A DNA stretch of 64,000 nt, taken from UHGV virus genome UHGV-0010228. The stretch is one strand, 5' to 3'. Origin of the DNA: a virus. Position numbers and translations under genes: made by a program. Shown in pieces: positions 1 through 63,293 of the stretch (position 1 is the first letter of the stretch; each line of letters opens with the position of its first letter). A model generated the notes under the pieces. It was given only the letters and a program-made list of their open reading frames with translations, was not told the DNA's origin and did no database searches.

Positions 1-85
1 AACTTACAGGATGCTTACCTGAAGCTCTAACAGTTCCCTTAACTTTCTCTTCTACAGTCTTCTTCATTTCATCGTACTTTGACAT
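1..85 (-). CDS. Hypothetical protein, N-terminal fragment (continues beyond the left edge of the window)
   Basis: Minus-strand ATG at 85-83 (MSKYDEMKKTVEEKVKG...) preceded by a GGAG-type RBS (plus-strand 'ctcctt' at 92-97). The ORF stays open to the window edge. Confidence 0.4.
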   Translation of the reverse strand, partial: MSKYDEMKKTVEEKVKGTVRASGKHPVS

Positions 86-159
86 TTTTTTAATCTCCTT
101 TTCATGATTCAGATTTAATTATAAATTAAATTACTCGTGGTGTTCGTTGAGTTATAAAT

Positions 160-1848
160 TTATAACGTAGTTGCTCCAGATGGTGGATTTACCATCTTAG
201 TTGATACTGGTTCTGAATTATTGAATTCATTTACAAGTTCTTCCCTGTCCATTTCAGAATATTCAGCGGAAGTTTCACTATCAGTAGCTATCACTTCAGT
301 AGCTTCAACTACATCAACAGATTCTTTCAGTTTTTCCGCCTTCTCTTTAGCTAACTGAGCATCTGCCTGAGCTTTGAGCTTTTCCCAATATTCTTTATAA
401 ATAGTTACTAACTGCTTATATGCGACGTCACCTTCTTTAATTCCATACTCATGAACTCGATTTAAGAATTCTCTATATGGCAGATGGAAGATTTCTGGAT
501 CTATATCTTCATAATCATCTTCATCATCTTCGTCGTCATATTCATCTTCATCAATTTCTTCTTCAATATCTTCACTATCATCATCACCATTTATAAGTTT
601 ATTAAATGCTGCTATTGCAGCATCTTCTTCAACTACAGGTTTAGTAGTTTTCTTTTCAACTACTATTTCGTCATCATCATCTTCGTCTTCAGTTAAATAT
701 TCAATAACATCATATACAACTTTAGACAAATCTTTGATCTGATTCTTTAATTCTGAAACTTCAGTGTTAGTAGATGGTACTACTTTAGGCTTTGGAGTAA
801 TGTTTGAAGACTGATTATTAGCATTCTGACTCTGAAGAGATATCAGTGTTGACATCATATCAATCATCTTATCTATCCTTGGGTCATACATATTCTGCTG
901 CTGAGACTGAAGATTTTCAGTTCTCCTAGAGTGATTATATGGCGATCCACCTCTTCCATAACGGCGATTTGCGTAATCTTCCCCATAGACATACGCATCA
1001 AATTCATAATCGTCATCATCGTCATCATCTGGTTCACCTAATTCAGCAATCTGATCATCACTTAAACCATCTAATATGGAATAACCTGATGATGAACGAT
1101 AGTCTTCATCATCATTATTACGGTTATTATTTCCTGGGTTTATCATCTTAAATGAACCATTCTTAAAATCGGGTGCATTACCCATCATTCTCTGATAATC
1201 CATGTATGCATTATAGTTATCTAAATCTTCCTGTGTGTATACGTCCGGAAGACGATAAAATTCATTGTATTTCGAATATTCTTCTTCATCTTCATCGATT
1301 AAATCGTCATCGAAGAAATCTCCTAATCCGAAATTATGATGAATTCCATCTTTATCACTATCAATAAAGTTCATTAAACCTTTATACTTATTTTTATAAC
1401 CTTTAGCATTAAGATTTAAATATGACTTAAATTCTATTATAGTTTTCTTATATGCCTTATTATAGAATTTCAGTTCTTTCTTTAATGCATCAACATTTTT
1501 GCCATGTTTCTGTCTATCCTTAATACGATTTCTAGTATGCTTAATATCACATACTAAATTTATTAAATCCCTCATTGCCATCATAAGAGATTTAGATCCA
1601 ACTAATCTTTCAAGATTATTACGACCAACATATTTGTCAATCATAAATAATATCATCTTTGAATCTTCACAACGTATTATTCTAGATGCAAATCTATCCG
1701 CACCGAATAATTCATTGAAGATATCATCAACTGCGGAGACATTATCAGGAACTCTAGTTCCCATATTTACACATAAATTCACCATGCTTTTAGCAAGATA
1801 CATGTTTGATACATGTCTATACTTATATTTCTTATTCTTCATCTTCAT
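160..1848 (-). CDS. Large acidic (D/E-rich) hypothetical protein
   Basis: Long ORF. Probable start is MKMKNKK directly after GGAGG. Contains long poly-D/E tracts (DDDDDDD, EDEDDDDE, DEDEYDDEDDEDDYED) and a basic N-terminal region. Confidence 0.6.
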   Translation of the reverse strand: MKMKNKKYKYRHVSNMYLAKSMVNLCVNMGTRVPDNVSAVDDIFNELFGADRFASRIIRCEDSKMILFMIDKYVGRNNLERLVGSKSLMMAMRDLINLVCDIKHTRNRIKDRQKHGKNVDALKKELKFYNKAYKKTIIEFKSYLNLNAKGYKNKYKGLMNFIDSDKDGIHHNFGLGDFFDDDLIDEDEEEYSKYNEFYRLPDVYTQEDLDNYNAYMDYQRMMGNAPDFKNGSFKMINPGNNNRNNDDEDYRSSSGYSILDGLSDDQIAELGEPDDDDDDDYEFDAYVYGEDYANRRYGRGGSPYNHSRRTENLQSQQQNMYDPRIDKMIDMMSTLISLQSQNANNQSSNITPKPKVVPSTNTEVSELKNQIKDLSKVVYDVIEYLTEDEDDDDEIVVEKKTTKPVVEEDAAIAAFNKLINGDDDSEDIEEEIDEDEYDDEDDEDDYEDIDPEIFHLPYREFLNRVHEYGIKEGDVAYKQLVTIYKEYWEKLKAQADAQLAKEKAEKLKESVDVVEATEVIATDSETSAEYSEMDREELVNEFNNSEPVSTKMVNPPSGATTL

Positions 1849-2395
1849 CCTCCACATAATTATCTAATGTATCAGTTAATTCGTCTGGATCGTGAAAATC
1901 ATTATCTTCAACATCATCAAAGATTGATTCATCTTCATCTAAATCATTCTTATATAATTCAACATATCTGCCAATCTGATCTTCGACAATATTTCTATAA
2001 GTATCTTCATCTGATATTATATCAATACAATTATTAATGATCGTATCCTTATATTCATCACTGAATTCATCAATTGAGATATCGTCAGAATATGACTCAA
2101 TGATATCATCATATGCAGATGAAAATGCTGATCTATCGTGATATGTTATTACGTCAGATCCATAAAATTCTTCCATAGCATCTGAATATTCTTTCTTAGT
2201 TTTATAACCAGAAGGATCAATGAATGATTCCATATCATTCATTGCTTTTGTGACTTCATCTGCAATGTTTAAAATCTTTTCGTCATCTTCATTATCTGTG
2301 TAAGATGATACCATTGCATAAAAGTTTGATAATCTGCTCATTGTGTTTTTCTCCTTTTTAATTAAGTAATATAATTTATTAGTGTTATTCACCAT
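1832..2395 (-). CDS. Acidic hypothetical protein
   Basis: 187-aa ORF that overlaps the start of the downstream gene. D/E-rich. Confidence 0.55.
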   Translation of the reverse strand: MVNNTNKLYYLIKKEKNTMSRLSNFYAMVSSYTDNEDDEKILNIADEVTKAMNDMESFIDPSGYKTKKEYSDAMEEFYGSDVITYHDRSAFSSAYDDIIESYSDDISIDEFSDEYKDTIINNCIDIISDEDTYRNIVEDQIGRYVELYKNDLDEDESIFDDVEDNDFHDPDELTDTLDNYVEDEDEE

Positions 2396-2523
2396 TAGAG
2401 ATAATTATAAGCGCGGATTTCTTATAATTATTTCACTAAAATAATATATCATTATAAAAAAAATAGAGGATGAAGAATAAACTTCATCCTCTTATGCTAG
2501 TTATTTATATAATTAGCAAATTT

Positions 2524-3258
2524 TTACCAACCCTGATAATCGTAAAGATTTGCTAAATCTTCATCAAGAAAATCCATTGCCTCATCATATGCAACATCAA
2601 GATCTTCTTCTGTTATACCCATGACATCTCCAGCATTATTATTGAAAGTGTCATTTATATAATCTGTAGATATATAATTATATCCACATACAGTTGATAT
2701 AAATTCCTGAATTTCTGGAGCACATGCCATACGCCATTCATAAGTTGGATACTTATTTACTATCTTAACTTTTAATGGTTTAGAACTGGCTTGATTCCAA
2801 TGAACTGTAAAATCATACGATTCTCTTAATTCGTTAAGAGAATCAACATATGACATACCAGATAGCAGTCCTAACTGAGCCTGAAGGAGCATAGCTCCAT
2901 AATCATTGAAGTTAAGAGTTCCATATGTTATCTCATACTCCTTAACCTCGTCATTATCAGTTATAGTATCAAAACTGATAATGTCAAATCCAGTTGCACA
3001 GTCTTTTGCAACTATTTGTGCAACTTCTGAAATTTCTGACTCTGAAATTCCCATTTCTCCTTCACCTAACCACGAGAGCCAGTTTTCTAACGTTTCCTGA
3101 ATACCATACCCAGTAAACTTTTCAAACTGACTCCAGCTATTTTTTGTATTAATTTGCTCAAAAGTATTATACACCATTTCGGATGATTTTGCACATCCTG
3201 TGAATAATAATATTGACGCAATAACTAATACTAATACGGTAAAGATACTTTTCTTCAT
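2524..3258 (-). CDS. Putative secreted lipoprotein
   Basis: Start at MKKSIFTVLVLVIASILLFTGC after 'aaggaggg'. Signal peptide plus lipobox-like LFTGC. Confidence 0.6.
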   Translation of the reverse strand: MKKSIFTVLVLVIASILLFTGCAKSSEMVYNTFEQINTKNSWSQFEKFTGYGIQETLENWLSWLGEGEMGISESEISEVAQIVAKDCATGFDIISFDTITDNDEVKEYEITYGTLNFNDYGAMLLQAQLGLLSGMSYVDSLNELRESYDFTVHWNQASSKPLKVKIVNKYPTYEWRMACAPEIQEFISTVCGYNYISTDYINDTFNNNAGDVMGITEEDLDVAYDEAMDFLDEDLANLYDYQGW

Positions 3259-3271
3259 TTTATTTCCCTCC

Positions 3272-3877
3272 TTATACATAAAGATTATTCCATTCTACAA
3301 CCGAATACTGATCGGTTCCATCCATTGGCATTTGGTCTGAATATGCCCAATAAATGCCAATTACATGATATTCCTCATTAGGATTTATTCTTAATCCTAT
3401 AGTCTTTTCATAATCCAAAACAATTTCTGGATCGGTAACATTTTCAATTGGGCTGAATGTGTTTGGAAAATATGGATCTTCTATAAAGTGTGAGAAAAAT
3501 TCATCATCAGTAGCAATGATATATATATTCTCAAGGTCTGGAAAATATAATGCAATTTCTGGACCTTCCCCATAATAATTTCCAGTAACATGTGATCCCA
3601 TATCACTTTCATCGATATCAATAAGAGCAAATTTTGCTCTACTCTTATCAATATAATCTAAATAGGTCATTGTATCTTCAACTATAGATTTTAATTCATC
3701 AGATGGTATATACCCGTTAAATTCTGAATTGGGATTTACATCCCAGTTATACTGATAACTATCCTCGTCAGAAGATACTGGTGATGATTCTATAGGGTTT
3801 TCTTTGGCTGGTGATTCTCCAACTCCACAACCTGATAAACCTATAATACCTGCTAATATTAATGCTACAATTTTCAT
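3272..3877 (-). CDS. Putative secreted lipoprotein
   Basis: MKIVALILAGIIGLSGC is a canonical lipobox (L-S-G-C). RBS 'aaggagg'. Arranged in tandem with 2524-3258. Confidence 0.65.
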   Translation of the reverse strand: MKIVALILAGIIGLSGCGVGESPAKENPIESSPVSSDEDSYQYNWDVNPNSEFNGYIPSDELKSIVEDTMTYLDYIDKSRAKFALIDIDESDMGSHVTGNYYGEGPEIALYFPDLENIYIIATDDEFFSHFIEDPYFPNTFSPIENVTDPEIVLDYEKTIGLRINPNEEYHVIGIYWAYSDQMPMDGTDQYSVVEWNNLYV

Positions 3878-4003
3878 TTTATTTCCTCCTTAATAATAAC
3901 TTATAACTAGCATTTAATCACTATAATAATATATCAATTTAAAAAAATACAAATATCAGGAAGCTTTAACATTTCATTAAAATGTATACAAGGAGGTGTA
4001 CAA

Positions 4004-7000
4004 ATGCTATTCGAAAATTATGAAGATTGGAGAGTATATCCACCACAACCGAGGATATATTTCCCTAAAAATTCTTCAAAAAATAAAACTGCAGGATATG
4101 GATCAGCGTTATTTTTATTAACCCCCAAAACTACATCATCTTTCGAATTTATGAAAGATAAAAATGTAGCACTCAGAATGTCTTTATATAAATACTATAT
4201 GATAGAGACGATGTATAAAGAAAAAATTGGTCGAAAAAATGTCATATTAAATATGACTAGACAGATGGAAGCTTTATATAATGAAAATAATGTTGAAAAA
4301 GATACTACAATATCTTATATTCCTAGACCTCAGAAAAAAGCTAGATTAAAATCTGGTAATAATATAATTGTAGATTTATCAATGTGGATGGAATTATATC
4401 TTAAATATACAGTAACTATTCAGAATCCTAAGGAAAAGTGTAGAATATTTATAGATTTATTAGATAAATTGCTTAATGATAGTAATTATAATAATTATGA
4501 AAAATTAGTATGCATAGATATAAATTCATGGACTAATAGAGCGGCAGATTGTGTTATGATGAATCGCGATCTACTCAATAACCCTCTATCAATTTTAATT
4601 TATGCTATGGTTAAATATCCGGATTTATTAAATGGAAAACTTAAAAACTTTAGAATATATCTCGTAAATAGATCTAGTAAGCAGATTTTTCTCTTTAATA
4701 CAAAAGATATTATTAAAGATAATTATAACAAATTTAAGAGTAAGATCAAATTATTCAAGGGTATATCTATATCATCTTCTGAAACTCTTGAGGGCGATAC
4801 CAATATATCAGAAGGTGAAGCCAAGGCTATCGCTATCAATAATTATAAAAATAAAGTATTAAAGTCAATGAAGAGTAATCTCTTAGGTAACAGTAAGAAT
4901 ACTGAAATTCGAGAAATTACTGACGATGATGAATTGATTGATAGTAATGATGATTATGATGAGATCTTCGATGTTACTAAAGAAATAGAAGAAGAATCTG
5001 ATGAAGTAAAACCAACCGATGAAGATTCTAATCTTTTTGATGAAATGGGAGCAGAGTTAGATCTTGATGCTGAAGCTTTGGCTGAATTAGATAATATGAT
5101 TGGTGATATTGATGATGTATCAACTGATGATATATTGAATACTCCAGTAGATGAAGTTGCAGATGATCTTGCTGAACGTGTTAAAAATAATGTATTCATT
5201 GCGGAATTTAAACCTAAGAGGACAAGTGAGCAAGAAGAGCGAAATCGTGAAATGATGGATATTCAGGCAATAGCTCTTAATCAGGAAAATATTGATAATG
5301 CAAAAACCAAGATAATTGATACAACAGATTTTTCAGACTATATCAATTCTTCCAATGTAAATATTCTTAAATCAAAATATGTTAATTTTGATAAAGACTA
5401 TGTTGAAAAGAAAATGGAAGGTGACATAGACAATGCTGTTGCTTGCTTATCTGGAGCGACAGATAAGATATTCATCACCAATAAAGAAGTTATTGATTCT
5501 TCAGACTCTTTAAATCTTAAGAGGACTTTAAAATATTCCCTTGAAGATGAAAAAGGTAATAAAATGACAATAACTTTTGATGTACCTATTATAATTGATA
5601 ACTGCTATATCTATGTAAATGGTAGTAAGAAGTTGATAGGTCATCAGTTTATATTAAAACCTCTAGTAAAAACTGGTCCTGATACTGTTCAGTTAGTAAC
5701 TTCATATAATAAAGTATTTATCACTAGAGATGGCGTTGTAGATTATATATCTTCTAGCATTATAACTTATATGGAGAAGAATCCAGAGAAGTTTAAGTGT
5801 GTTAGGGGTAATTCATCAATTAAGAATAAGAAATATAACACAGCATTAGATTTTACAATGTATGCTAAGTTATTTACTAGATTTACAATTGGTGATGAAG
5901 AATTTATTACCGGCATTGAAGAATTTTATGATAGATACAATAAAAAATATCCAACTAAAAAACTTAAGTTGGATAAAAAGAAAATTGCTGAGAAGTATCC
6001 AATTTCATTTAATAAAAAGACTGGTGAAATAAGATATATGAAATCAACTGAAAGTTTTTCGGATATCTTATTATCAATCATTGATGAAGAAGATAAGAAA
6101 GCAATTAGTAGAATTAAAAAGAAACCTAGACTGGTTTATGTTAGGGCTAAATTAATGGGCCAAATATTCCCAATGGCTCTTCTTTTAATGTATCATGAAG
6201 GATTCGCGTCTATAATGAAACGTGCAGATATTGCTTATCAATTCACAGATAAGAAGTCATATAATAAAATGGATAAAATGAGATATGATTTCTTAGAACT
6301 ATCGGATGGATTAGTCGTCTGGGAACGTAGAAATATGTTAACTTCATTACTCATGAATGGCTTAAAGCGATTAGATTTTACACCTTATACAATAGAAGAG
6401 TTAGAATCTAAGGATACTTATAGGTCATTATTAGTCGACTTATATAATGGGGATAATTCTATTTCATATAAAATAGATCAGTTCTATGATTTTACAATAG
6501 ATTCTATTACTAAGGAGATATTAGAGGATATGAATTATCCTACAAATCTTCCTGATTTATTAATATTAGCAGTTAAGATGTTATGTGATAGCGCATATGC
6601 TCTTGAAAATAATATGAATAATATGAGAATTAGAAGTAATGAGGTAATTCCAGCGATTATTCATAAAGAAATAGCAGATGCATATAACTTATATAGAAAG
6701 ACATCTTATAAGAAGAAACCAGTTAATGTATCTATTAAACCAAATATCATAATTGATAAATTACTATCTGCTGATACCAATCTCATCGAGGAATTTAGTA
6801 CTATAAATCCTGTATTAGAGATAGAAAAAGCTCGTTGTGTAACATTTAAAGGCTATAGAGGTATACAGTTAGATAGAGCGATAACTCTTCCTAGACGTGG
6901 ATATGATCCATCAATGTTAGGAATTATGGGAATTTCAACATCATCAGATGCTAACTGTGGTGTAAATAGACAGATGACATTAGAACCTGCGATTACATCT

Positions 7001-7159
7001 ACAAGAGGATACTTGGAGGTAAATGGTGTTGAAAATGTAAATTCTTTAACAGATGCTAATTTACTATCGCCAGCAGAATTATTAACACCACTCGGTGTTA
7101 TACATGATGACCCCGATAGAACTGCGATCAAAAAAAGCTTGTTAGATGTCGCAGTATAA
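4004..7159 (+). CDS. Multisubunit RNA polymerase beta subunit, N-terminal part (exon 1). The ORF reads through into a group I intron and stops at 7157-7159.
   Basis: RBS 'aaggagg'. C-terminal region 'SDANCGVNRQMTLEP' resembles the conserved bacterial beta motif 'DSNRALMGANMQRQAVPL'. 'YIYVNGSKKLIGHQFILKP' is reminiscent of 'FIINGTERVIVSQL'. Contiguous with the intron and exon 2. Confidence 0.55.
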   Translation: MLFENYEDWRVYPPQPRIYFPKNSSKNKTAGYGSALFLLTPKTTSSFEFMKDKNVALRMSLYKYYMIETMYKEKIGRKNVILNMTRQMEALYNENNVEKDTTISYIPRPQKKARLKSGNNIIVDLSMWMELYLKYTVTIQNPKEKCRIFIDLLDKLLNDSNYNNYEKLVCIDINSWTNRAADCVMMNRDLLNNPLSILIYAMVKYPDLLNGKLKNFRIYLVNRSSKQIFLFNTKDIIKDNYNKFKSKIKLFKGISISSSETLEGDTNISEGEAKAIAINNYKNKVLKSMKSNLLGNSKNTEIREITDDDELIDSNDDYDEIFDVTKEIEEESDEVKPTDEDSNLFDEMGAELDLDAEALAELDNMIGDIDDVSTDDILNTPVDEVADDLAERVKNNVFIAEFKPKRTSEQEERNREMMDIQAIALNQENIDNAKTKIIDTTDFSDYINSSNVNILKSKYVNFDKDYVEKKMEGDIDNAVACLSGATDKIFITNKEVIDSSDSLNLKRTLKYSLEDEKGNKMTITFDVPIIIDNCYIYVNGSKKLIGHQFILKPLVKTGPDTVQLVTSYNKVFITRDGVVDYISSSIITYMEKNPEKFKCVRGNSSIKNKKYNTALDFTMYAKLFTRFTIGDEEFITGIEEFYDRYNKKYPTKKLKLDKKKIAEKYPISFNKKTGEIRYMKSTESFSDILLSIIDEEDKKAISRIKKKPRLVYVRAKLMGQIFPMALLLMYHEGFASIMKRADIAYQFTDKKSYNKMDKMRYDFLELSDGLVVWERRNMLTSLLMNGLKRLDFTPYTIEELESKDTYRSLLVDLYNGDNSISYKIDQFYDFTIDSITKEILEDMNYPTNLPDLLILAVKMLCDSAYALENNMNNMRIRSNEVIPAIIHKEIADAYNLYRKTSYKKKPVNVSIKPNIIIDKLLSADTNLIEEFSTINPVLEIEKARCVTFKGYRGIQLDRAITLPRRGYDPSMLGIMGISTSSDANCGVNRQMTLEPAITSTRGYLEVNGVENVNSLTDANLLSPAELLTPLGVIHDDPDRTAIKKSLLDVAV

Positions 7160-7542
7160 TACCTTGTGAATTGCGGGGATAATTGATACTTTTTATATAC
7201 TAAATCATTATAGTAATATAATGATGGCGAGGGGTAATTCCTTAGGTATAGTAATAATTATAAAAAGAATATTAAATCCGCATCTAATGCTCTTTATACG
7301 AGAAAAGTTCAGAGACTATCGAAAGCTAGATATCTATCATTTATAGAAATATATAAAATACTATACAATATATAGTATGGATAGATTGAGATAACCAAGT
7401 GAGTAGAGTAGAGCCAAGTTATTGGGTTAGTATATATATGATATTAGTATATAGTAAATCTATTAAATCGAAGCGCAAGGGTTAGATTTTATTTGGTAAA
7501 AGAGTAAGATCTAATAAGATATAGTCCGCGATCACATTGTGG
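7001..7542 (+). ncRNA. Group I self-splicing intron with no internal ORF, interrupting the RNAP beta gene. Boundaries are approximate.
   Basis: Canonical core elements occur in the right order and spacing: P 'gAATTGCGGGg' at 7168-7178, Q 'AAATCCGCA' at 7262-7270, R 'GTTCAGAGACTATC' at 7295-7308 and S 'AAGATATAGTCC' at 7516-7527. P4 pairs tgcgg with ccgca, and P7 pairs gacta with tagtc. Candidate P1 is exon 'atct' (6997-7000) with IGS 'ggat' (7007-7010). Candidate P10 is 'aaga' (7003-7006) with exon-2 'tctt' (7543-7546). Candidate omega-G is 7542. Confidence 0.7.
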
Positions 7543-8724
7543 TCTTACAAGCAAACGAAATACATGATTCCAGTTGCTGATTCGTCACCAGTGTTAATAG
7601 GTAATAAAGTTGAATCTATTTTACCATATTTAATTTCAAATGAATTTGTTGTTGATGCTAAGCAAGATGGTGAAGTTGTTGAGATTAAAGACGATTATTG
7701 TGTCGTAAAATATAAAGATGGAACTTATTATTCTATAGATATTGGAAGTAGAATTAAGAAAAATGCAAGTGCAGGTTTCTTTATAGACAATAAATTAACT
7801 TGCAATTTAAAAGTTGGAGATAAATTCAAAAAGGGTGATATTTTAGCTTACAGTGATAAAGCATTTACTCCTAATAGAGATGGTAAAGGCGCATCTATGA
7901 ATTTAGGAGTATTAACAAAAATTGCAATTGTAAGTAATTGGGATGTATATGAGGATAGTGCACCTATCACTAAAAAATTAGCTGAACGGTTAGCTACAGA
8001 TATGGTTTGGGAAAAAGCAGTATCATTAAATCCTGGTACTTACATTGAAAAGATGGTTAAGATTGGTGATAAAATAAAGACTGGTGAATCACTGATGTTA
8101 TTTGAAGAAGTTGATGATACGGATTTCGCTGCTGTTCTTAAACAGATTCGTGAAGAAAATCAAGAAGAACTTATTGAAAGCACAAAATCAACTATTACTT
8201 CGAAATACACAGGAGAAATTGCTGATATTAAAATATATTCAACTGTGCCAGTTGAAGAGATGGATGAATCTTTAGCTAAAATAGTGACCGATTATTATAA
8301 AAAGGTCGAAAAAAGAAATAATATTCTTGAAAAATATAAGAATCCTGGAGATTGTAATTATTATAAATCTGGACAGATTATATCTGAGGAATCTAAAGTT
8401 ATGAAACCATCTAAATCTGGTAAGATTAAAGGTGAGTATGCCGAAAATTCAGTAGTTATTGTATTCTATGTTAAGTATAGAGATGTAGCTGCTAAGGGTG
8501 ATAAAGTATGTGCACAGTTCGCACTTAAGGGTGTTTGCTCACATGTTATAGAAGAAGGATTAGAGCCATATTCTGAATATAGACCAGATGAAGAAATATC
8601 AGCTCTTATTGCACCTCTTGCAGTATCTGCAAGAAAAGTTCCGTCAGTATTCAAGATGATGTTTGGTAATAAATTGCTTATAGAATTAAAACGACATTTG
8701 AAAGATATGTACTTAAATAACTAA
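7543..8724 (+). CDS. Multisubunit RNA polymerase beta subunit, C-terminal part (exon 2)
   Basis: 'IPVADSSPVLIGNKVE' resembles 'VPLMQPEAPFVGTGME'. 'GDKVCAQFALKGVCSHVIEEGLEPYSE...IAPLAVSARK' matches the universally conserved beta motif 'GDKMAGRHGNKGVISKI..EDMPY...LNPLGVPSRMN'. There is no ATG or RBS at the 5' end of the ORF (the track starts at TTG), consistent with an exon. Confidence 0.75.
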   Translation, partial: SYKQTKYMIPVADSSPVLIGNKVESILPYLISNEFVVDAKQDGEVVEIKDDYCVVKYKDGTYYSIDIGSRIKKNASAGFFIDNKLTCNLKVGDKFKKGDILAYSDKAFTPNRDGKGASMNLGVLTKIAIVSNWDVYEDSAPITKKLAERLATDMVWEKAVSLNPGTYIEKMVKIGDKIKTGESLMLFEEVDDTDFAAVLKQIREENQEELIESTKSTITSKYTGEIADIKIYSTVPVEEMDESLAKIVTDYYKKVEKRNNILEKYKNPGDCNYYKSGQIISEESKVMKPSKSGKIKGEYAENSVVIVFYVKYRDVAAKGDKVCAQFALKGVCSHVIEEGLEPYSEYRPDEEISALIAPLAVSARKVPSVFKMMFGNKLLIELKRHLKDMYLNN

Positions 8725-9992: not shown

Positions 9993-10493
9993 TGAAAATA
10001 TTTTGATAGATTTTTAAACGATATATTACTCAGATGAATCTTTCGTTTCATAAGAGTTTATATAGAAATATTTCTATATAAACTCTTATTCCTAGTTGTA
10101 TATAAATGAGCTTATATAAATATAAATATTTATATAAGTAGATAGATATTAGAATTTATATATAATCTATATAGAGTTTATAGAGCTTTTATATATAAAT
10201 ATAGTAGATATTATATATATTTATATAAATAGAAAATAAATTATAAATAGTTATGAATTTTATTAAAGAATATTATTTACAGTTATATAAATAAATCTAT
10301 ATAAATAAATCTATATAAATATTTCAATACTCAATAAATATAAAAATACTCTTTAATAAATATATTATATAATAGAATATAAATTATATCCGATATAAAA
10401 ATACCCTACCCTGACGGCATCCGAGCAATATATCTTCGATATAATGTTATGGGGTATTTTTAAGTTTTCAACCCCCGAAAGGAGTCAATTAAA
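9993..10493. repeat. Non-coding AT-rich region with a 38-bp perfect palindrome (10051-10088) and about 8 copies of the 'TATATAAATA' iteron. Candidate origin or regulatory hub.
   Basis: 'taagagtttatatagaaat|atttctatataaactctta' is a perfect inverted repeat. 'ttatataaat' recurs throughout 10100-10330, including the tandem 'aaatctatataaataaatctatataaat'. There is a stem-loop 'aaataccc...gggtattt' at 10401-10456. Confidence 0.6.
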
Positions 10494-13763: not shown

Positions 13764-14378
13764 GTGATATTTGATAAACTTACAATGAAAATTATTAATA
13801 ATGAAAAGAAATTGATAGATTTAAATAATAGTGAATCTACAGCATTTGCTGTAGATATTATAACAGAATATTGTGTCCACAATAAAACTCATATAATACA
13901 AATAGTAAAATCGTCTATTGTAGCATTACTATTAATGATTATAATGATATTTTCTTGGATAAATATGTATAAGCATCAAGTTGTGATAAATATGGATTAT
14001 GATTTATTAGTTGCAATAGATCATATTTTATTAACAATATGTAGCATATATGCGCTATATTATTTAATTTCATCTGGAAAAATAACTGTATTATTAGTTG
14101 ACGTATATAATTCAATTAATCACTTAGGTAGTTTGAGTAAACTTCATAAAGAAATTAATAGTATCGATCCAGATGAACTCAAGACTAATAAATCTAAGGA
14201 ATTATTTAGCCAAGCAATTAATCAAGTTGTAAATCTTAGTGAACTTAAAACTGCATATTTAATTGCTGATCATTTATCATATGCCAACGAATATGTATCT
14301 TTCAATAGAGTGCGAAATTTCATGAATAAATTGGTTGTGTGTTATGTTGCGTTAACATCTTTCTTAATATATATTTAA
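13764..14378 (+). CDS. Membrane protein (multiple TM helices)
   Basis: GTG start with 'gaggagg' 8 nt upstream. Hydrophobic segments 'IVALLLMIIMIFSWI' and 'LLTICSIYALYYLI'. Confidence 0.5.
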   Translation: MIFDKLTMKIINNEKKLIDLNNSESTAFAVDIITEYCVHNKTHIIQIVKSSIVALLLMIIMIFSWINMYKHQVVINMDYDLLVAIDHILLTICSIYALYYLISSGKITVLLVDVYNSINHLGSLSKLHKEINSIDPDELKTNKSKELFSQAINQVVNLSELKTAYLIADHLSYANEYVSFNRVRNFMNKLVVCYVALTSFLIYI

Positions 14379-14396
14379 ATTGGAGGTTAAAATACT

Positions 14397-14858
14397 ATGA
14401 GTAATATGAAAAATTTTAATCTTAATAATCCGTTCGTTATTAAGTGTAAAGAGAGTTATGATAATCTCAATAAGACAATAATTGAATCTATCAAGGCTTC
14501 AATTGAGATGATTATTGGTACCTTTATAATAGTGCTAATAGATTTATTAGGGCATTTTCTTATGCCTGAATATAATAATATCACTAGAGCACTGATAAGT
14601 GCAATTGTATTATTTACATTAGTTATTATATTATCAACCCTATTAGTTGATAATATAATACGCAAATCTAAATTAGTTGATATAAATAAATTAATAGATT
14701 CAAATTCATTTGAAGTATTAAATGCTAATAATGAATTACTATTCAATACCAATCTTGAAATAGAAAATCTAGAAGGTAAATGTAATGTTATGATAAATGT
14801 ATTTATTGTAACATTATGTGTTGAAATTGTTAGTCAGATTATATTATGGGTGGTGTAA
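14397..14858 (+). CDS. Membrane protein
   Basis: RBS 'ggaggt'. TM segments 'IIGTFIIVLIDLLG' and 'ISAIVLFTLVIILSTLLV'. Confidence 0.5.
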   Translation: MSNMKNFNLNNPFVIKCKESYDNLNKTIIESIKASIEMIIGTFIIVLIDLLGHFLMPEYNNITRALISAIVLFTLVIILSTLLVDNIIRKSKLVDINKLIDSNSFEVLNANNELLFNTNLEIENLEGKCNVMINVFIVTLCVEIVSQIILWVV

Positions 14859-14861
14859 GTT

Positions 14862-15359
14862 ATGGAAATAAATGGAATAATTAAAAAATATAAGTTATCA
14901 TCTTTACCTGAAGATATCAAAAGTGATATATTATCTATGAGCCCTAAATATATTCCTGAGATTATTAAAACTAATACTTCTACATTTATAAAGGCTAATG
15001 ATATAGCAATGATAGATAATTGGTCTAAATCATATATTAGATTTATATTGTATGATGTAAATGGTAAAATGATCGATAATGATGGGGATTATATTGAATA
15101 TGATGATTCGTTATATATGGCAAGATATTCAATATCATCTATAGCTACAATAGATCAGTTGAATATGGATTATGTAGTTAAATGTGATGATATTGAGTTA
15201 TATGGAGTTATTGATGGTAATGGTAATACTAGATATATAGGATTTATATCTATGGACTTAGATAAATTTCCAGATTTAAATTCAATAATATTTGGAGAAG
15301 AAAATAGAGAAATAATTTATAATAAATTCTTCAAGTATAATCAGAATATAAAAAAATAA
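14862..15359 (+). CDS. Hypothetical protein
   Basis: 165-aa ORF tightly following 14397-14858. Confidence 0.5.
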   Translation: MEINGIIKKYKLSSLPEDIKSDILSMSPKYIPEIIKTNTSTFIKANDIAMIDNWSKSYIRFILYDVNGKMIDNDGDYIEYDDSLYMARYSISSIATIDQLNMDYVVKCDDIELYGVIDGNGNTRYIGFISMDLDKFPDLNSIIFGEENREIIYNKFFKYNQNIKK

Positions 15360-15375
15360 ATTTATTAAAGTCTAT

Positions 15376-15412
15376 ATCAAAGAGAGTTCCAACATTGGAA
15401 CTCTCTTTGATA
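15376..15412. terminator. Bidirectional terminator hairpin between convergent genes
   Basis: 'atcaaagagagttccaacattggaactctctttgat' forms a 15-bp stem. Confidence 0.65.
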
Positions 15413-15441
15413 GTTTGGTAGAAGATATTTTTTATTTTTCT

Positions 15442-15981
15442 TTAGTAATGCACTACTCCTCCAAGTGCATCCATGATAGGGTCGAGCTTCCGACCAATGT
15501 GCTTATATATACGCATATGGTCGTTAATTTCTGGAGTGAATTTTCCTCCAGAAACTTCAAGCTCCTTCTGGATCAGTTTTTCCAGCTGATCCATAGCTCC
15601 TATAAGAGCCTTTGCTTTTTCGTTGAGTTCTTCGTTATTCATCTTTGAGTAAGAAGAATTCGTACTTGAAAAAGCTTTCTTTGCTTTGTCTCTTGTAAAG
15701 CAAAGTAAAGATTTGAGTTTCTGAGCTGCCGGTGGAAGGATCTTAGCTGCAGCATATGCTGTACCATATGTTACAGCACAAAGGCCGGCATATGCTCCTA
15801 ATACAGCAGCCGTTACTTTTATAGCATCTGCAGGAGTTGCCTTAAGGTCAGTTGTTTTTTCAACTTCCTCGTTCTCGATCTGTTCTCGAGCCTCAACGAC
15901 TCTGCGATCCTGAAGATTTGATAATAAATTCTCTTCAGTTGTAGTTGTAGTATTAACCTGATTCATCTTATTTTTTCTCAT
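15442..15981 (-). CDS. Membrane-anchored hypothetical protein, GC-richer than its surroundings (moron-like)
   Basis: Roughly 40% GC against about 28% around it. TM segment 'VTAAVLGAYAGLCAVTYGTAYAAA'. RBS 'aaggagg'. Preceded by the conserved terminator-promoter module. Confidence 0.6.
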   Translation of the reverse strand: MRKNKMNQVNTTTTTEENLLSNLQDRRVVEAREQIENEEVEKTTDLKATPADAIKVTAAVLGAYAGLCAVTYGTAYAAAKILPPAAQKLKSLLCFTRDKAKKAFSSTNSSYSKMNNEELNEKAKALIGAMDQLEKLIQKELEVSGGKFTPEINDHMRIYKHIGRKLDPIMDALGGVVHY

Positions 15982-16100
15982 AGTATTTTCCTCCTTATTA
16001 TACTATATGAGTTGTATTTATTCACTTTAATAATATACTAATAAAAAAAAAAGAAATTACGGTATATTCTATATATAGAATATACCGTAAATAATATAAT
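15982..16100 (-). promoter_or_regulatory. Repeated module, copy 1: 36-bp perfect-palindrome terminator (16057-16092) + T10 + 'TATATTATTAAAGTG' promoter-like motif + conserved leader with TGTATAAT-like box and RBS
   Basis: The minus-strand read gives a hairpin then 'tttctttttttttt' then 'tattagtatattattaaagtg'. Near-identical copies occur at 33912-34030 and 17112-17190. Confidence 0.6.
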
Positions 16101-16104
16101 GAAA

Positions 16105-16276
16105 ACAATTCATATTAGTCATCAAACTCGATAGGTTTGATGTCATCAGCAACTTCTTTAAGTTCATCAAGAGTCATAACTTCATCATCATATACTGCAT
16201 TAGCAGTATTAATAATAGTTGCTAATCCTCCTATAATAGATAATGCACCAAATGCATAATTGAGTAATCTCATCAT
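16105..16276 (-). CDS. Small hydrophobic protein (about 56 aa)
   Basis: MMRLLNYAFGALSIIGGLATIINTANAVYDDEVMTLDELKEVADDIKPIEFDD. RBS 'aaggag'. Below the ORF-track length cutoff. Confidence 0.45.
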
Positions 16277-16367
16277 TTTTGTGTGCTCCTTTCCATAATT
16301 ATCATTATTATATAGTTATATTTATATAAAAAAGATAAGTCGATAATCAACTTATCTTTGGTAGAGT

Positions 16368-16493
16368 TTATCTACCTGTTAATTCTTTTCTTATAGCATT
16401 ATAACCATCATTAACTAACCGAGTAGTAATGGTTGTAAAGAATGCTGTGATTATAGCTGTTAATGCTATAATCCCTATTTTCTTCCATCCCAT
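16368..16493 (-). CDS. Small membrane protein (41 aa)
   Basis: MGWKKIGIIALTAIITAFFTTITTRLVNDGYNAIRKELTGR. RBS 'aggagg'. Confidence 0.45.
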   Translation of the reverse strand: MGWKKIGIIALTAIITAFFTTITTRLVNDGYNAIRKELTGR

Positions 16494-16578
16494 AATAGTA
16501 ACCTCCTATGTATTTATTCATATTAATAATATATTGAAAAAAATAAAGTATAATAAGTGCATTGAAGCACTCACGCTT

Positions 16579-16794
16579 TTATTTGCGTGAGTGCTTTTTT
16601 CTTCTCATATATTTGGATATCTTCTGATATCCAAATATAATTACTGCTTCTGATAGGAGTATTCCTACTCCTATTATAATTGTCTGGAAATCTGCGCCGC
16701 CAATGCAGCAGCAGATGCCGACTACAGTTATTGCGAATATGAGTATGGACAGTGTCCATACCCATATTCTTTCAATTGGAGTTGTGTTTTTCAT
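16579..16794 (-). CDS. Small membrane protein (71 aa) with a CCC motif
   Basis: MKNTTPIERIWVWTLSILIFAITVVGICCCIGG... GC-richer codons. The C-terminal codons form a hairpin plus T6 on the plus strand (16566-16600). Confidence 0.5.
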   Translation of the reverse strand: MKNTTPIERIWVWTLSILIFAITVVGICCCIGGADFQTIIIGVGILLSEAVIIFGYQKISKYMRRKKHSRK

Positions 16795-16795
16795 T

Positions 16796-16963
16796 TTAAC
16801 ACCCCCAATTGTTATGTAAGAGATTTATATTCATCTCTTCCTGACGAAGCTGCTCTGCCTGAAGGCGCTGCTGCTCCTCTTCCATTAATTTGTGGGCTTT
16901 CTTAATAAGCCCACCGCCACCTTTCTTTTCAGTCTCTCTAACTTCTTTAAATCTAATTCTCAT
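16796..16963 (-). CDS. Small charged protein (55 aa), paralog of 16968-17111
   Basis: MRIRFKEVRETEKKGGGGLIKKAHKLMEEEQQRLQAEQLRQEE... RBS 'aaggagg'. The track's 88-aa version is an upstream extension. Confidence 0.5.
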   Translation of the reverse strand: MRIRFKEVRETEKKGGGGLIKKAHKLMEEEQQRLQAEQLRQEEMNINLLHNNWGC

Positions 16964-16967
16964 GATG

Positions 16968-17111
16968 TTATTCCTCCTTTTCATCATATCCCATAAGTTC
17001 TTTATAAAGGCGTAATGCTTCTTCAGAGAAGCCACCCTGTGAAGATTTTTTGTTTTCTTCACGTTCTTTCACCTCTATTATCTCTCTCACTTCTCTAATT
17101 TTTATTCTCAT
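16968..17111 (-). CDS. Small charged protein (47 aa), paralog of 16796-16963
   Basis: MRIKIREVREIIEVKEREENKKSSQGGFSEEALRLYKELMGYDEKEE. RBS 'aaggagg'. Same N-terminal MRI(K/R)..EVRE as its paralog. Confidence 0.5.
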   Translation of the reverse strand: MRIKIREVREIIEVKEREENKKSSQGGFSEEALRLYKELMGYDEKEE

Positions 17112-17190
17112 AGTATTTCCTCCTTTATTATACACTATGATTATAACTTCACTTTAATAATATATGAATATACAATCCAGTAATTACGGT
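17112..17190 (-). promoter_or_regulatory. Repeated promoter/leader module, copy 3 (drives the small-protein operon 17111 to 16105)
   Basis: The minus-strand read is 'accgtaattactggattgtatattcatatattattaaagtgaagttataatcatagtgtataataaaggagg'. It shares 'accgtaatt', 'tatattattaaagtg' and 'catagtgtataat' with copies 1 and 2. Confidence 0.55.
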
Positions 17191-17234
17191 CAAATAACAA
17201 TGCTCTAATTTATATAAAGGAGGCGATCTATATT

Positions 17235-17879
17235 ATGGAAATGCCAAATATAGAATACACAGGAGATATATCAAAATTCATAACTACTGAAGATGATATG
17301 TATAATAATATAATGTATTATAAAGATAATGATTTCTTTATGGATTCAATGAATTATTCTAAATTCATAAAGGGATGTGAAAGATTAGTTAGAACTTCTA
17401 AGGACTATTCTAAATTCGTTAGTGTGATAAAGAATGAATTTGGTATCGACTATTGTCAGGTCTCACCAAAGATACATGATGTAGATACTCAAATTGAAAT
17501 GCATCATGGACCATTATTCACGTTATATGATATATGTGAAGTAATAACTAATTATTTCTTAATGTCTAATTTTAAAGTAAATTCATTTAGAATAGCAAAT
17601 CAAGTAATGCAAGAGCATTGGGATCTTAGAGTACAAGTAATAATGTTATCCACTACAAATCATGAAGCAGTTCATAATAGAGATATATTCATAAACTATA
17701 ACCAGGCAATTGGTGATATTGATTCATTCATTAAGCGATATACGCCATATTTATCAGATGAGCAGAAATATAAGATCTGGAATTACTTTAATCTTTGTAA
17801 TAACAATCCGGCGTTTGCTAAGAGTTTTGATAGAGGTATATTAGATCTTGATTATGTTAAAAAATATATAAAGTTGTAG
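17235..17879 (+). CDS. HNH / His-Me-finger-like motif protein (paralog A)
   Basis: 'IEMHHGPLFTLYDI ... NHEAVHN' is shared with 25247-25948 and resembles the colicin-DNase 'ELHHEKP...HIDIH' motif. Good RBS 'aaaggagg'. Confidence 0.5.
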   Translation: MEMPNIEYTGDISKFITTEDDMYNNIMYYKDNDFFMDSMNYSKFIKGCERLVRTSKDYSKFVSVIKNEFGIDYCQVSPKIHDVDTQIEMHHGPLFTLYDICEVITNYFLMSNFKVNSFRIANQVMQEHWDLRVQVIMLSTTNHEAVHNRDIFINYNQAIGDIDSFIKRYTPYLSDEQKYKIWNYFNLCNNNPAFAKSFDRGILDLDYVKKYIKL

Positions 17880-17927
17880 TCATATAAAACTTAATTATAA
17901 TTTATAAATCTGAAAGGAGACTTAATT

Positions 17928-18341
17928 ATGAACGAAAATCTTCAGACATTATTAGCATCATGTGCACCATTACTGATTTTATTAATAACTATTATAACTG
18001 CATATGTAGTTAAGCTTATTAATAAAATATGTGATGATACTACAAGTAAAACTAATAATGAAATGCTTAATTATGCAATTGATGCTGTTAATTCAATATC
18101 GGTAACAGTTGTAAAAGCTTTTAATCAGCAGATAGTTGACGATCTTAAAGCAAAATCAGAAGATGGCAAATTAACTATTGATGAAATTAGAATGATTAAA
18201 ACCGATGCGATCAATACAATTAAAGAATCATTAACTGATACAGTTAAGGAAACTATTGAAACTGCATATGGTGATTTAGATCAGTATATATCAAATACTA
18301 TTGAATCAGCAATATCTGATGTTAAAAATGAAAATAAATAG
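17928..18341 (+). CDS. Single-pass membrane protein
   Basis: RBS 'aaaggag'. N-terminal TM segment 'LLASCAPLLILLITIITAYVV' followed by a polar helical domain. Confidence 0.55.
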   Translation: MNENLQTLLASCAPLLILLITIITAYVVKLINKICDDTTSKTNNEMLNYAIDAVNSISVTVVKAFNQQIVDDLKAKSEDGKLTIDEIRMIKTDAINTIKESLTDTVKETIETAYGDLDQYISNTIESAISDVKNENK

Positions 18342-18369
18342 AGAAGGGATATCCCTTCTCTATTTTTAA

Positions 18370-18888
18370 TTACTTCTTATCATTATCTTTAGTAGCATGA
18401 TATTTATTAATAGTATCGGAATCAGTATACTTTTCCGGCACATCAACATACTTATGAATCTGACTTCTAGGATGGATCTTTACAACCACACCAGTCTCAT
18501 TCATAGCTTTAATTATTGCCTTAGCAATTTCTGCTTTCCATTTAGGATTAGCAAAATGGAAATACTGAATAGCTCGACCAATTAATTCTTTAGTAGCAAC
18601 TGGATCATTTTTAACTATAAGAGGATATTTTCTCTGACGCTTACCATCTTTATCTGTGAATACAATAGCAAAGGCTTCATCTGGAAGTGCATCTCTAGTT
18701 TTAGAATCCAATATCTGCTTCTTTCTAACGCCCTCAAAGGCAAAATCAAATACAGACTCAAATGCTAAATCTTCTTCACAAACTTCATCATCCTGAGTAT
18801 GATTTATATCATTTAACTGTTCAATTAAAATATCGAGATCATAATTTGGATCAGTATCGCCAAAATAAAAATCACTTACGATTCCCAT
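18370..18888 (-). CDS. Hypothetical protein
   Basis: 172-aa ORF. Confidence 0.5.
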   Translation of the reverse strand: MGIVSDFYFGDTDPNYDLDILIEQLNDINHTQDDEVCEEDLAFESVFDFAFEGVRKKQILDSKTRDALPDEAFAIVFTDKDGKRQRKYPLIVKNDPVATKELIGRAIQYFHFANPKWKAEIAKAIIKAMNETGVVVKIHPRSQIHKYVDVPEKYTDSDTINKYHATKDNDKK

Positions 18889-26703: not shown

Positions 26704-26791
26704 ATCTATTCACCTCCTATTAGATTATCTAAATGTTATTTATTATTCCTCGAAAACACGAGGATAAAATAAATACATGTAATAAAGAGAG

Positions 26792-32806: not shown

Positions 32807-33169
32807 ATGGAAATGCAATTTTTACAGGGTATTATGGATACTCAAATATATGCATTAGCAGTTGCATTATATTTACTCGGAATCGGAATTAGAAAGATTA
32901 GTACTGTAAAGAATAATCATATTCCAGTTATACTTGGTATTGTAGGTATAGTATTTGTAGCATTGCATATATTTGCAACTCAGAGTTTTGATACACCACA
33001 GCAGATAGCTGCGGCAATATTTGCCGCATTTGTTCAGGGTATATTGTGCGCAGCAGCAGCAGTATATGCTGATCAGATTTTTAAGCAGTATAAAAAATTA
33101 AAATCTGTAGTAACTACTAATGAGCCTGAAGAAGAAACTTCAGATCGAGTAGATGAGGATTATAACTAA
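32807..33169 (+). CDS. Putative class-I holin (3 TM segments, charged C-terminus)
   Basis: TM segments 'IYALAVALYLLGIGI', 'IPVILGIVGIVFVALHIF' and 'IAAAIFAAFVQGILCAAAAVYA', then an acidic tail. Lies downstream of the fibre-like genes. Confidence 0.55.
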   Translation: MEMQFLQGIMDTQIYALAVALYLLGIGIRKISTVKNNHIPVILGIVGIVFVALHIFATQSFDTPQQIAAAIFAAFVQGILCAAAAVYADQIFKQYKKLKSVVTTNEPEEETSDRVDEDYN

Positions 33170-33174
33170 AAAAA

Positions 33175-33236
33175 GAAACCTCCGAAGAGGTTTCATAAAT
33201 AATCAGACTAGATTTATACTAGTCTGATTATTTTTA
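33175..33236. terminator. Back-to-back terminators
   Basis: Hairpin 'aatcagactagatttatactagtctgatt' plus 'attttt' serves the plus-strand holin gene. Hairpin 'gaaacctccgaagaggtttc', read on the minus strand and followed by T7, serves the minus-strand gene 33234-33911. Confidence 0.65.
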
Positions 33237-33911: not shown

Positions 33912-34030
33912 AGTATATATCTCCTTTCTTTATATACAATTTTTTATTGTATATACTATGACTATAATTTATTCTCATCTTAATAATATACAAATAAAAA
34001 AAAAAGAAATTACGGTATTTAATTATTATT
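33912..34030 (-). promoter_or_regulatory. Repeated module, copy 2
   Basis: The minus-strand read is 'accgtaatttcttttttttttatttgtatattattaag...tatagtcatagtatatacaat...aaggagatatatactATG'. It shares at least 40 nt with copy 1. Confidence 0.55.
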
Positions 34031-58978: not shown

Positions 58979-59150
58979 TTTTCTTTTCTCCTTTCTAATA
59001 TATTAATTATATAATAATCACGGGGCCATCTATTTTAATATATAATCACAAAAATAATATATTTATAAAAAATAAATAATATTCACATATTTTTATAAAT
59101 ATCAATTAAATATAGATTAACAGTGGAATAAATCAAGGGGGTGTTATATA

Positions 59151-63219: not shown

Positions 63220-63233
63220 AAAAAATAAAGAAT

Positions 63234-63293
63234 GACGATTGGAGTATACGTCAATCTGTGCGCCATTACAGATTTACAAGTACTCCAATCGTC
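63234..63293 (+). other. GC-richer two-tier stem-loop downstream of the polymerase gene
   Basis: 13-bp stem 'gacgattggagta' pairing with 'tactccaatcgtc', and an inner stem 'tctgt' with 'acaga'. No T-run follows. Confidence 0.4.

Follow-up and report, generated by a model that had tools for sequence, protein, structure and literature searches.

A repeated terminator/promoter/leader module beside hypervariable orphan genes in a human-gut jumbo phage

Background

Several systems known from phages are of interest for the region described here. Morons, described by Hendrix and colleagues in lambdoid and other temperate phages, are autonomous units of promoter, gene and terminator with an atypical base composition that lie between resident genes. 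Early transcripts of T4, such as those of genes e and soc, can carry hairpins that occlude the ribosome-binding site (RBS) or the start codon. The AR9/PBS1-like phages use two phage-encoded multisubunit RNA polymerases (RNAPs). The minus-strand gene 15442-15981, the subject of this article, lies with its flanks at 15376-16100 of a 64-kb stretch of the UHGV virus genome UHGV-0010228. That whole stretch is called the window below.

A fourth system is the promoter-early stem-loop (PeSL) of T4-type phages. It joins a stem-loop terminator, an early promoter, a Shine-Dalgarno (SD) sequence and a start codon in a conserved stretch of about 100 bp (Arbiol et al. 2010, PMC2839356; Comeau et al. 2014, PMC4122927). 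PeSLs lie upstream of orphan genes in hyperplastic regions, and they mediate insertions, deletions and replacements between near-identical phages (PMC2839356; PMC4122927).

The promoters of Bacillus phage AR9 have been mapped by differential RNA sequencing (Lavysh et al. 2017, PMC5312081; Sokolova et al. 2020, PMC7598289). The early consensus is AAATATATATTAT-(6N)-G+1 and the late consensus is AACA-(6N)-TA/G. The early promoters are active independently of protein synthesis, and because of this they are attributed to the RNAP that is carried in the virion.

In the window, gene 15442-15981 (locus 1) and a second minus-strand gene, 33234-33911 (locus 2), encode orphan proteins of 179 and 225 amino acids. 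Each follows a copy of the same composite of terminator, promoter and leader. The open reading frames (ORFs) of both exist as deeply diverged alleles that are swapped between strains and are under purifying selection. On balance it is probable, though well short of certain, that each gene is an early unit whose module both insulates and drives it and also serves as a patch for recombination, with the ORFs as exchangeable cassettes.

Exchange of alleles between strains

Evidence for exchange is provided by relatives that are almost identical to the window outside the two ORFs. At locus 2, ten flanking genes of the relative L022 encode proteins 99-100% identical to those of the window, with a synonymous divergence (dS) of 0-0.012. 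The 225-residue protein is only 42% identical, with a dS of 2.1 and a ratio of nonsynonymous to synonymous divergence (dN/dS) of 0.27. The nucleotide sequences agree at 100% through the promoter, the leader and 14 codons, at about 50% inside the ORF, and at 100% again at the stop codon. Another contig of the L022 sample, L037, matches the window at 99.7% identity over 12.8 kb.

Locus 1 shows the same pattern in the relative L005. Flanking proteins are 96-98% identical, and four of six genes have a dS of 0.03-0.15; the gene of a 41-residue protein reaches 0.49, from very few sites. The 179-residue protein is 60% identical, with a dS of 1.06 and a dN/dS of 0.25.

Every relative recovered (L005, L007, L022, L026 and L035) carries a homologous allele at the same site. 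The event is therefore allele replacement and not insertion. At locus 2 there are at least four alleles, and contigs with an identical holin gene mostly carry a 213-residue allele, not the 225-residue allele of the window. Two predicted early orphan genes are thus replaced wholesale between strains that are 99.7-100% identical elsewhere.

Divergence that is so sharply confined to an ORF in otherwise identical genomes might instead come from targeted hypermutation, either transcription-associated or of the type caused by diversity-generating retroelements (DGRs). The graded divergence among strains, with identities of 86%, 42% and 40%, would suit such a process. However, the L022 and L026 alleles are mosaics, in which blocks of 140-200 nt with perfect identity stand beside others with 60-70%. 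The substitutions in them are mostly transitions, with a symmetric spectrum and no specificity for adenines, and the divergence runs across the whole ORF. The mosaic blocks and the symmetric spectrum point to recombination among old allelic lineages rather than to mutagenesis of the DGR type. A dN/dS of 0.2-0.27 with saturated dS is likewise the mark of old alleles under purifying selection, the leader is spared though it is transcribed, and no match to a reverse transcriptase-like family was found among the proteins scanned. Hypermutation is highly improbable as the source of the alleles.

The module and its copies

Read on the minus strand, the 5' flank of gene 15442-15981 consists of a terminator hairpin, a run of ten T (T10), ATTAGTATATTATTAAAGTG, the TATAAT-like box TAGTATAAT, AAGGAGG (15990-15996) and ATG. 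An earlier reading, made from the sequence only, had given the elements in this order. It had also described the hairpin as a perfect palindrome, which it is, although of 34 bp (16057-16090) and not 36 bp (16057-16092). The palindrome is 100% conserved in L005. Between T10 and the start codon, the promoter region reads ATTAG, TATATTAT (16030-16037), TAAAGT and G16023, followed by a leader of 42 nt.

This module, m1, has two extended copies in the window. The copy at locus 2, m2, is identical to m1 at 41 of 44 nt (93%; 16022-16065 against 33975-34018), as the sequence-only reading had seen. The third, m3, precedes an operon of small proteins that begins at 17111. Here too a diverged copy had been proposed, and the identity is 77% for 17149-17192 against the same m1 reference and 83% over the 40 nt of leader and start (15971-16010 against 17101-17140).

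The likeness of the three extends beyond what early promoters in general share, which is only about 20 nt, and all three extended copies precede orphan units. ACCGTAATT occurs exactly three times in the 64 kb, each time exactly 26 nt upstream of the octamer TATATTAT. The terminator of m1 has this 9-mer as its descending arm. Both m2 and m3 are situated between divergent genes and lack the ascending arm, and m2 still keeps the T10 tail. They can therefore be regarded as copies of an m1-type composite that were truncated within the hairpin.

The leaders of the three modules are predicted to fold on a common plan. A 5' arm, UCAUAGUAUA, pairs with a 3' arm, UAUACUAUGA, that contains the AUG, and the SD sequence lies in the loop. 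The conserved strings TCATAGTATA and ATACTATGAGA are explained by this hairpin. Its minimum free energy (MFE) is -6.1 kcal/mol in m1 (z -2.8), -12.1 in m2 (z -2.9) and -9.3 in m3 (z -4.3). This fold is absent from three other early leaders. The hairpin may have a function in translation or stabilisation.

Gene 15442-15981 had been taken for a cassette inserted singly against the orientation of its flanks. It is in fact the last unit of a minus-strand block of 1.7 kb (15442-17111) with six small genes, arranged as separate units with their own terminators. Its protein has a predicted hydrophobic helix, with a Kyte-Doolittle maximum of 1.61 over 19 residues at residues 53-71; as the transmembrane anchor of the sequence-only reading, this helix is borderline. 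The protein is probably associated with the membrane.

The promoter and the transcription programme

The window comes from a human-gut jumbo phage of about 256 kb and 29% GC that belongs to the AR9/PBS1-like group. Its matches to PHROGs and Pfam identify it as a jumbo phage; they include RNAP beta, topoisomerase II, GroEL, DNA polymerase B, virion proteins and two holins. The gene for the beta subunit of a multisubunit RNAP is split into an N-terminal part (4004-7159) and a C-terminal part (7537-8724), and no beta' gene lies within the window. By RNAP beta, the nearest isolates are Listeria LPJP1, Staphylococcus jumbo phages, phiR1-37 and PBS1, at 25-36% identity. A nucleotide search of 14000-18500 against isolated phages gave no match.

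The octamer, the 6-nt spacer and the +1 G of m1 are the same as in the early consensus that experimental mapping gave for AR9 (PMC5312081; PMC7598289). Exact matches to TATATTAT-N6-G number 21 in the window, where 6.1 are expected and shuffled sequence never had more than 13. Most of them (17) are intergenic, and 15 of these are sense-oriented with a gene start 35-133 nt downstream. The DNA polymerase gene, an operon with topoisomerase genes and many orphan genes follow such sites. When the 17 intergenic sites are aligned, the consensus is tTATtaATATATTATTAa..TGA, and TATATTAT-N6-G is invariant in all of them. The core motif is thus spread genome-wide and is not specific to the cassettes.

A strong stem-loop of 11-20 bp lies within about 40 nt upstream of 8 of the 17 early promoters, with its T-tail merging into the AT-rich tract upstream of the promoter.

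The late motif of AR9 has a counterpart as well. Upstream of genes, AACA-N6-T[AG] is about six times as frequent as expected, with 14 sites (Poisson P 1e-7). The motif ends in TA at each of the 13 sites inspected. Most sites lie 32-41 nt before the start codon, and they precede virion-protein genes and the RNAP beta gene; examples are 3968-3979(+), 26755-26766(+) and 59119-59130(+). Only one gene has both motifs upstream. By its motif, the m1 promoter would be an early promoter for the virion RNAP, with transcription starting at G16023.

The TATAAT-like box allows another view. The module could be an ordinary host sigma-A promoter with TATAAT as its -10 element, its repeats reflecting no more than a strong-promoter consensus and a strong RBS. 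The box lies 1-2 nt upstream of the SD sequence in both m1 and m3, and a simple scan lists a TTCATA-17-TATAAT match at 17168-17140. However, a start 6-8 nt past the box would fall inside or after the SD sequence and leave an mRNA without an RBS, so that the box cannot be a -10 element. In m2 it is absent (TATATACAAT). Sigma-70-like matches are not enriched in the window (54 against 46.9 expected), and no pair of -35 and -10 elements has a start site that would work, whereas the element that never varies among the 17 sites is the consensus of the AR9 virion RNAP. The TATAAT stretch also makes up the 5' arm and loop of the leader hairpin. A sigma-A promoter is very unlikely here, and the box very probably lies inside the 5' untranslated region and is not the promoter element for which it had been taken.

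Base composition and origin of the cargo

Gene 15442-15981 has a GC content of 0.402 and a GC content at third codon positions (GC3) of 0.317, in a window of 0.291 GC where GC3 is typically about 0.19. The sequence-only reading had put the gene at about 40% GC in an AT-rich genome, which agrees. GC3 was further scored as a z-value for 64 genes by resampling synonymous codons from the window's own usage, so that amino-acid content is controlled. The two strongest outliers are 33234-33911 (z 5.8) and 15442-15981 (z 4.3); the genes of the small-protein operon reach 3.2-3.4. Both suppositions of the sequence-only reading about the units thus stand: the shared identity goes beyond a promoter consensus, and the cargo is atypical in composition.

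Translational selection as the sole cause of the high GC3 was rejected, since codons ending in C and in G are both raised. All alleles keep a GC3 of 0.32-0.42 within flanks of 0.14-0.19, and those of locus 2 lie at 0.34-0.42. That GC3 is high despite saturated synonymous sites argues against a recent import that is now decaying towards the composition of the genome. The cause could be GC-biased gene conversion where recombination has a hot spot, selection acting on the mRNA of immediate-early genes, or exchange with an unsampled reservoir of higher GC.

Further GC3 outliers without family matches are 56964-58169(-) (z 4.0), 58148-58978(-) (z 3.1) and 35131-35574(+) (z 3.4). Since 35131-35574 is 100% conserved in L022, high GC3 is not always tied to variability.

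Homologues of the cargo are few. Besides themselves, the 179- and 225-residue proteins have two homologues each among about 5.8 billion clustered proteins. All of these are on human-gut metagenome contigs of the same phage clade and at the same syntenic position. A full HMMER profile search with the 179-residue family against 1.84 billion cluster representatives returned the family itself only, and Pfam, PHROGs, PADLOC and NCBIfam gave no significant match for either protein. AlphaFold2 models from alignments of three sequences are all- or mostly helical, with the 179-residue protein all-helical at low confidence. Their predicted local distance difference test scores, 55 for the 179-residue protein and 49 for the 225-residue protein, are too poor for fold searches.

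These results bear on the suggestion that each gene is a true moron, that is, a promoter-gene-terminator unit placed between resident genes with a gene recently gained from a donor of higher GC, such as the host or another mobile element. Such a unit would be expected to look much as these do, with its own promoter motif and terminators, an orphan protein and a GC3 that ranks among the top two of 64 genes. Yet no donor was found: homologues exist only as alleles of the same locus within the phage clade, no relative recovered has an empty site for either large gene, and the alleles have reached synonymous saturation with GC3 still far above that of their flanks. The true-moron explanation is unlikely. 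The delivery of foreign cargo that the sequence-only reading had envisaged has no homologue outside the clade to support it.

The modules as possible exchange points

In related strains, the module and the terminators coincide with the boundaries of recombination. The 5' junctions lie just inside the ORF, downstream of the conserved module, at codon 3 in locus 1 and codon 14 in locus 2. The 3' boundary of the segment swapped at locus 1 is the stem-loop 15376-15411, and identity to L005 returns to 90-100% from about 15431.

Three more junctions fall in or beside such elements. In L035, a more distant relative, the locus-2 module is chimeric and joins an m1-type promoter segment (ATTAGTATATTATTAAAGTGAATAAATACA) to an m2-type leader. 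Synteny between L005 and the window ends at 16534, directly upstream of the octamer of a further unit, m4 (16526-16533). The gene of a 47-residue protein, 16968-17111(-), is precisely absent in two independent assemblies (L001 and L003), with the junction in the repeated RBS AAGGAGGAA.

The sequence of L005 upstream of m4 (1-5003) contains genes unrelated to the 64-kb window, among them one for a head-tail joining protein (PF24214). Either the promoter was the site of a rearrangement, or the block comes from a chimeric assembly at low coverage. The 47-residue protein is a paralogue of the next protein in its operon (MRIKIREVRE against MRIRFKEVRE). An apparent deletion in L002 was discarded as merely a scaffold gap of Ns.

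The module may nevertheless have no special role. Two fast-evolving host-interaction genes under balancing selection would give the same alleles, and the likeness of m1, m2 and m3 could stem from old local duplications constrained by promoter and translation signals. It accords with this that alleles stay at one locus, that the 3' junctions are unrelated terminators, and that there are only three extended copies in about 73 kb. The explanation does not account for m2, whose functionless half-hairpin and T10 are copies from an m1-type terminator that now stand between divergent genes, nor for the chimeric module of L035. It also leaves aside that a breakpoint and an indel junction each fall within promoter or RBS repeats and that the three extended modules coincide with GC3-rich units. 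It is rather unlikely.

The preferred explanation, in which the module is also a substrate for crossover, has several points to answer. The 3' junctions are formed by unrelated terminators, and no further copy of the module lies there. No allele in the data has moved to another locus, and with all of them at one locus, plain allelic homologous recombination using any conserved flank would suffice; crossover need not favour the module. The break in L005 could be a chimera, as its coverage is 3x, and all relatives are human-gut metagenomic assemblies. The predicted use, start and timing of the promoter are based on the identity of its motif to that of a relative, and the two RNAPs are only about 30% identical. 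The leader hairpin of m1 is weak (-6 kcal/mol) and is weaker still in L005 (z -0.7) and L007 (z -2.1). The persistently high GC3 is not accounted for by cassette exchange, and the analysis covers about 73 kb of the genome's approximately 256 kb. All of these weigh against the preferred explanation.

Proposed mechanism and meaning

In the proposed mechanism, 15376-16100 would be one monocistronic early unit. The stem-loop and T-run would terminate the upstream unit, and the RNAP packaged in the virion would read TATATTAT-N6-G right after injection of the DNA, starting from G16023. The 42-nt leader would then fold with the SD sequence in the loop and the AUG in the stem. A 179-residue, probably membrane-associated protein would be made, and the stem-loop shared with the convergent neighbour would end the unit. 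In this way the composite module would insulate and drive the gene.

Homologous recombination would take place in the same module, whose copies at three or more loci form conserved patches of homology. The ORFs between the module and the downstream terminator would be diverged, mosaic orphan alleles that are shuffled among otherwise nearly identical strains. From the portable promoter and leader cassette of the sequence-only reading, what remains is a repeated, probably recombinogenic module before compositionally odd genes; the foreign cargo and the promoter private to the cassette do not.

Wholesale replacement is typical of genes in conflicts between phage and host or between phages, which makes the two genes candidates for anti-defence or exclusion. 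One guess is that the 179-residue protein is a strain-specific early protein of host interaction, for exclusion or anti-defence, and is kept polymorphic by frequency-dependent selection.

A more far-reaching proposal is a dedicated system of allele shuffling for early host-interaction genes, marked by the three extended modules. The patch of palindrome or ACCGTAATT, promoter and leader would be a preferred entry for recombination, possibly targeted by a nuclease. Heteroduplexes between strongly diverged alleles would be repaired again and again, which would raise GC3 through GC-biased gene conversion, and the proteins would be strain-specific superinfection-exclusion or anti-defence determinants under negative frequency-dependent selection. 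This is doubtful. If true, arms-race cassettes of AT-rich jumbo phages could be recognised by their base composition. It remains a puzzle that hypervariable ORFs keep a GC3 nearly twice that of the genome despite saturated synonymous divergence.

Other features of the window

The coordinates of the modules, genes and terminators are collected in Table 1.

Table 1. Features of the early units and their modules in the window.
Feature	Position	Strand	Basis
34-bp perfect palindrome TTACGGTATATTCTATATATAGAATATACCGTAA, 15-pair intrinsic-terminator stem-loop of upstream gene 16115-16276; 5' part of m1	16057-16090	-	sequence, terminator scoring
Terminator tail TTTC + T10 (T10 at 16043-16052), doubling as AT-rich stretch upstream of the early promoter	16043-16056	-	sequence
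Predicted early promoter core TATATTAT-N6-G, predicted start G16023	16023-16037	-	match to AR9 virion RNAP consensus
Predicted leader hairpin: 5' arm CUCAUAUAGUAU pairs with 3' arm AUACUAUGAG containing AUG; SD AAGGAGG (15990-15996) in loop	15977-16011	-	folding
Orphan predicted early gene, 179 aa, GC3-rich, hypervariable allele	15442-15981	-	ATG start at 15981; composition, homologue searches, allele comparisons
Stem-loop, about 16 bp, shared by the convergent genes 14862-15359(+) and 15442-15981(-)	15376-15411		sequence and self-complementary match
m2: only 3' arm of the m1 hairpin (ATACCGTAA), T10, predicted early promoter (octamer 33983-33990, start G33976), leader hairpin	33912-34018	-	sequence comparison, folding
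Orphan predicted early gene, 225 aa, GC3-rich, minority allele at locus with at least 4 alleles	33234-33911	-	homologue searches, composition, allele comparison
m3: ACCGTAATT at -26, predicted early promoter (octamer 17157-17164, start G17150), leader hairpin; would drive small-protein operon	17112-17192	-	sequence comparison, folding
Small-protein operon, 47, 55 and 71 aa, GC3 up to 0.44	16579-17111	-	sequence, composition
m4 unit: terminator stem-loop 16553-16597, predicted early promoter octamer 16526-16533, 41-aa hydrophobic protein 16368-16493, terminator 16331-16359	16331-16597	-	promoter and terminator scans

Small proteins and holins. Among the small proteins of the minus-strand block, only the 71-residue one has a family match, a weak one to a 4TM effector (E 0.006). 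Two different holin-family genes, 17928-18341(+) and 32807-33169(+) (phrog_13712; PF16079 Hol44), lie in the window. One is directly beside the variable cassette of locus 2, and the other is about 0.8 kb from the variable small-gene block.

Module copies elsewhere. A further 9 kb beyond the window hold no further extended module and no GC3 outlier. A search for the module pattern in IMG/VR gave chance matches only, on 12 unrelated contigs without BLAST similarity to the window. In JGI metagenomes there was one match, on a marine contig.

A candidate small RNA. The region 63222-63366(-) has an early-type promoter (TATATTAT-N6-G, with its start near 63352) with neither an SD sequence nor an ORF behind it. 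What follows is a highly structured stretch, about 125 nt long (MFE -39.2 kcal/mol, z -6.0), that ends in a terminator with a 13-bp stem and a T-run. It has no Rfam match, is convergent with the 3' end of the DNA polymerase gene, and is conserved in L037. It is a candidate for an early small non-coding RNA. Rfam and tRNA scans of the whole window gave no matches. A non-coding RNA element common to the long early leaders at 63366, 10361, 34998 and 2448 was considered and rejected, as their alignment shows no convincing similarity.

Repeats and a large protein. Three tandem repeats of 14 nt (AATAAATCTATATA) lie at 10276-10331(+) in an intergenic stretch of 18% GC, just upstream of the early-type promoter at 10361, which has a leader of 133 nt. 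The gene 48094-52503(-) encodes a protein of 1469 residues with PQQ/WD40-like beta-propeller repeats and no PHROG match, and it has the lowest GC3 z of all (-3.6).

Uracil in the DNA. The enrichment of AACA-N6-TA suggests that the phage may have uracil-containing DNA and a specificity subunit like gp226. The late motif of AR9 is recognised only when the template strand carries deoxyuridine.

Comparison with known systems

Morons. The units share with morons their own promoter and terminator and an atypical composition. They differ in that neither large gene shows a presence/absence polymorphism, the 47-residue gene being the only indel, and no outside donor was found. The unit would also belong to the lytic early programme of a jumbo phage and not to expression from a prophage.

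Hairpins of T4 e and soc. In both cases the leader folds with its initiation codon paired. Here the loop leaves the SD sequence free, the hairpins have short stems, at -6 to -12 kcal/mol, and no internal late promoter that bypasses the hairpin was found.

Targets of DGRs. The cassette ORFs differ from a DGR target by their symmetric spectrum, divergence over the whole ORF and mosaic blocks, with no reverse transcriptase-like match among the proteins scanned.

Early promoters of AR9 and PBS1. With the early promoters of AR9, PBS1 and other RNAP-encoding jumbo phages (Lavysh et al. 2017, PMC5312081; Sokolova et al. 2020, PMC7598289), the shared features are TATATTAT, a 6-nt spacer, G+1, an AT-rich upstream stretch and a position before early operons. 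The complementary late motif AACA-N6-TA before virion genes and the split genes of the beta subunit are also common to both. The promoters of the window are predicted ones, and its RNAP is only 25-36% identical to those of the isolates. TA(A/T) follows the octamer here, while AAATA precedes it in AR9. Neither the subfamily with ACCGTAATT and leader hairpin nor its tie to hypervariable GC-rich orphans is described in the passages of the two AR9 reports used here (PMC5312081; PMC7598289). The AR9-type programme of two polymerases would be extended to an uncultured lineage of human-gut phages.

PeSLs. The closest analogue is the PeSL of T4-type phages, here with a different type of promoter. Both combine a terminator stem-loop and an AT-rich tract with an early promoter, an SD sequence and a start codon. 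In both, indels and replacements between close relatives have junctions in or beside the elements. Repetition over about 100 bp before orphan genes in plastic regions may be a further likeness: the three extended copies all precede orphan units, though the other promoters share only about 20 nt. A full-text search of the literature found no paper with both 'PeSL' and 'jumbo'.

There are also differences. PeSLs are defined in part by a sigma-70-like promoter and have polyG/polyC stems, whereas the module has the virion-RNAP consensus of AR9-type jumbo phages and AT-rich palindromes. There are about 50 PeSLs in a T4-type genome, against three extended copies in about 73 kb here. PeSLs accompany the gain and loss of unrelated ORFs; here, the 47-residue gene excepted, diverged homologous alleles are found at a fixed locus. 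PeSLs are not reported to mark GC-rich genes. The shuffling of terminator/promoter cassettes, described only for T4-type phages with sigma-70 promoters, may thus also operate on the promoters of a virion RNAP.

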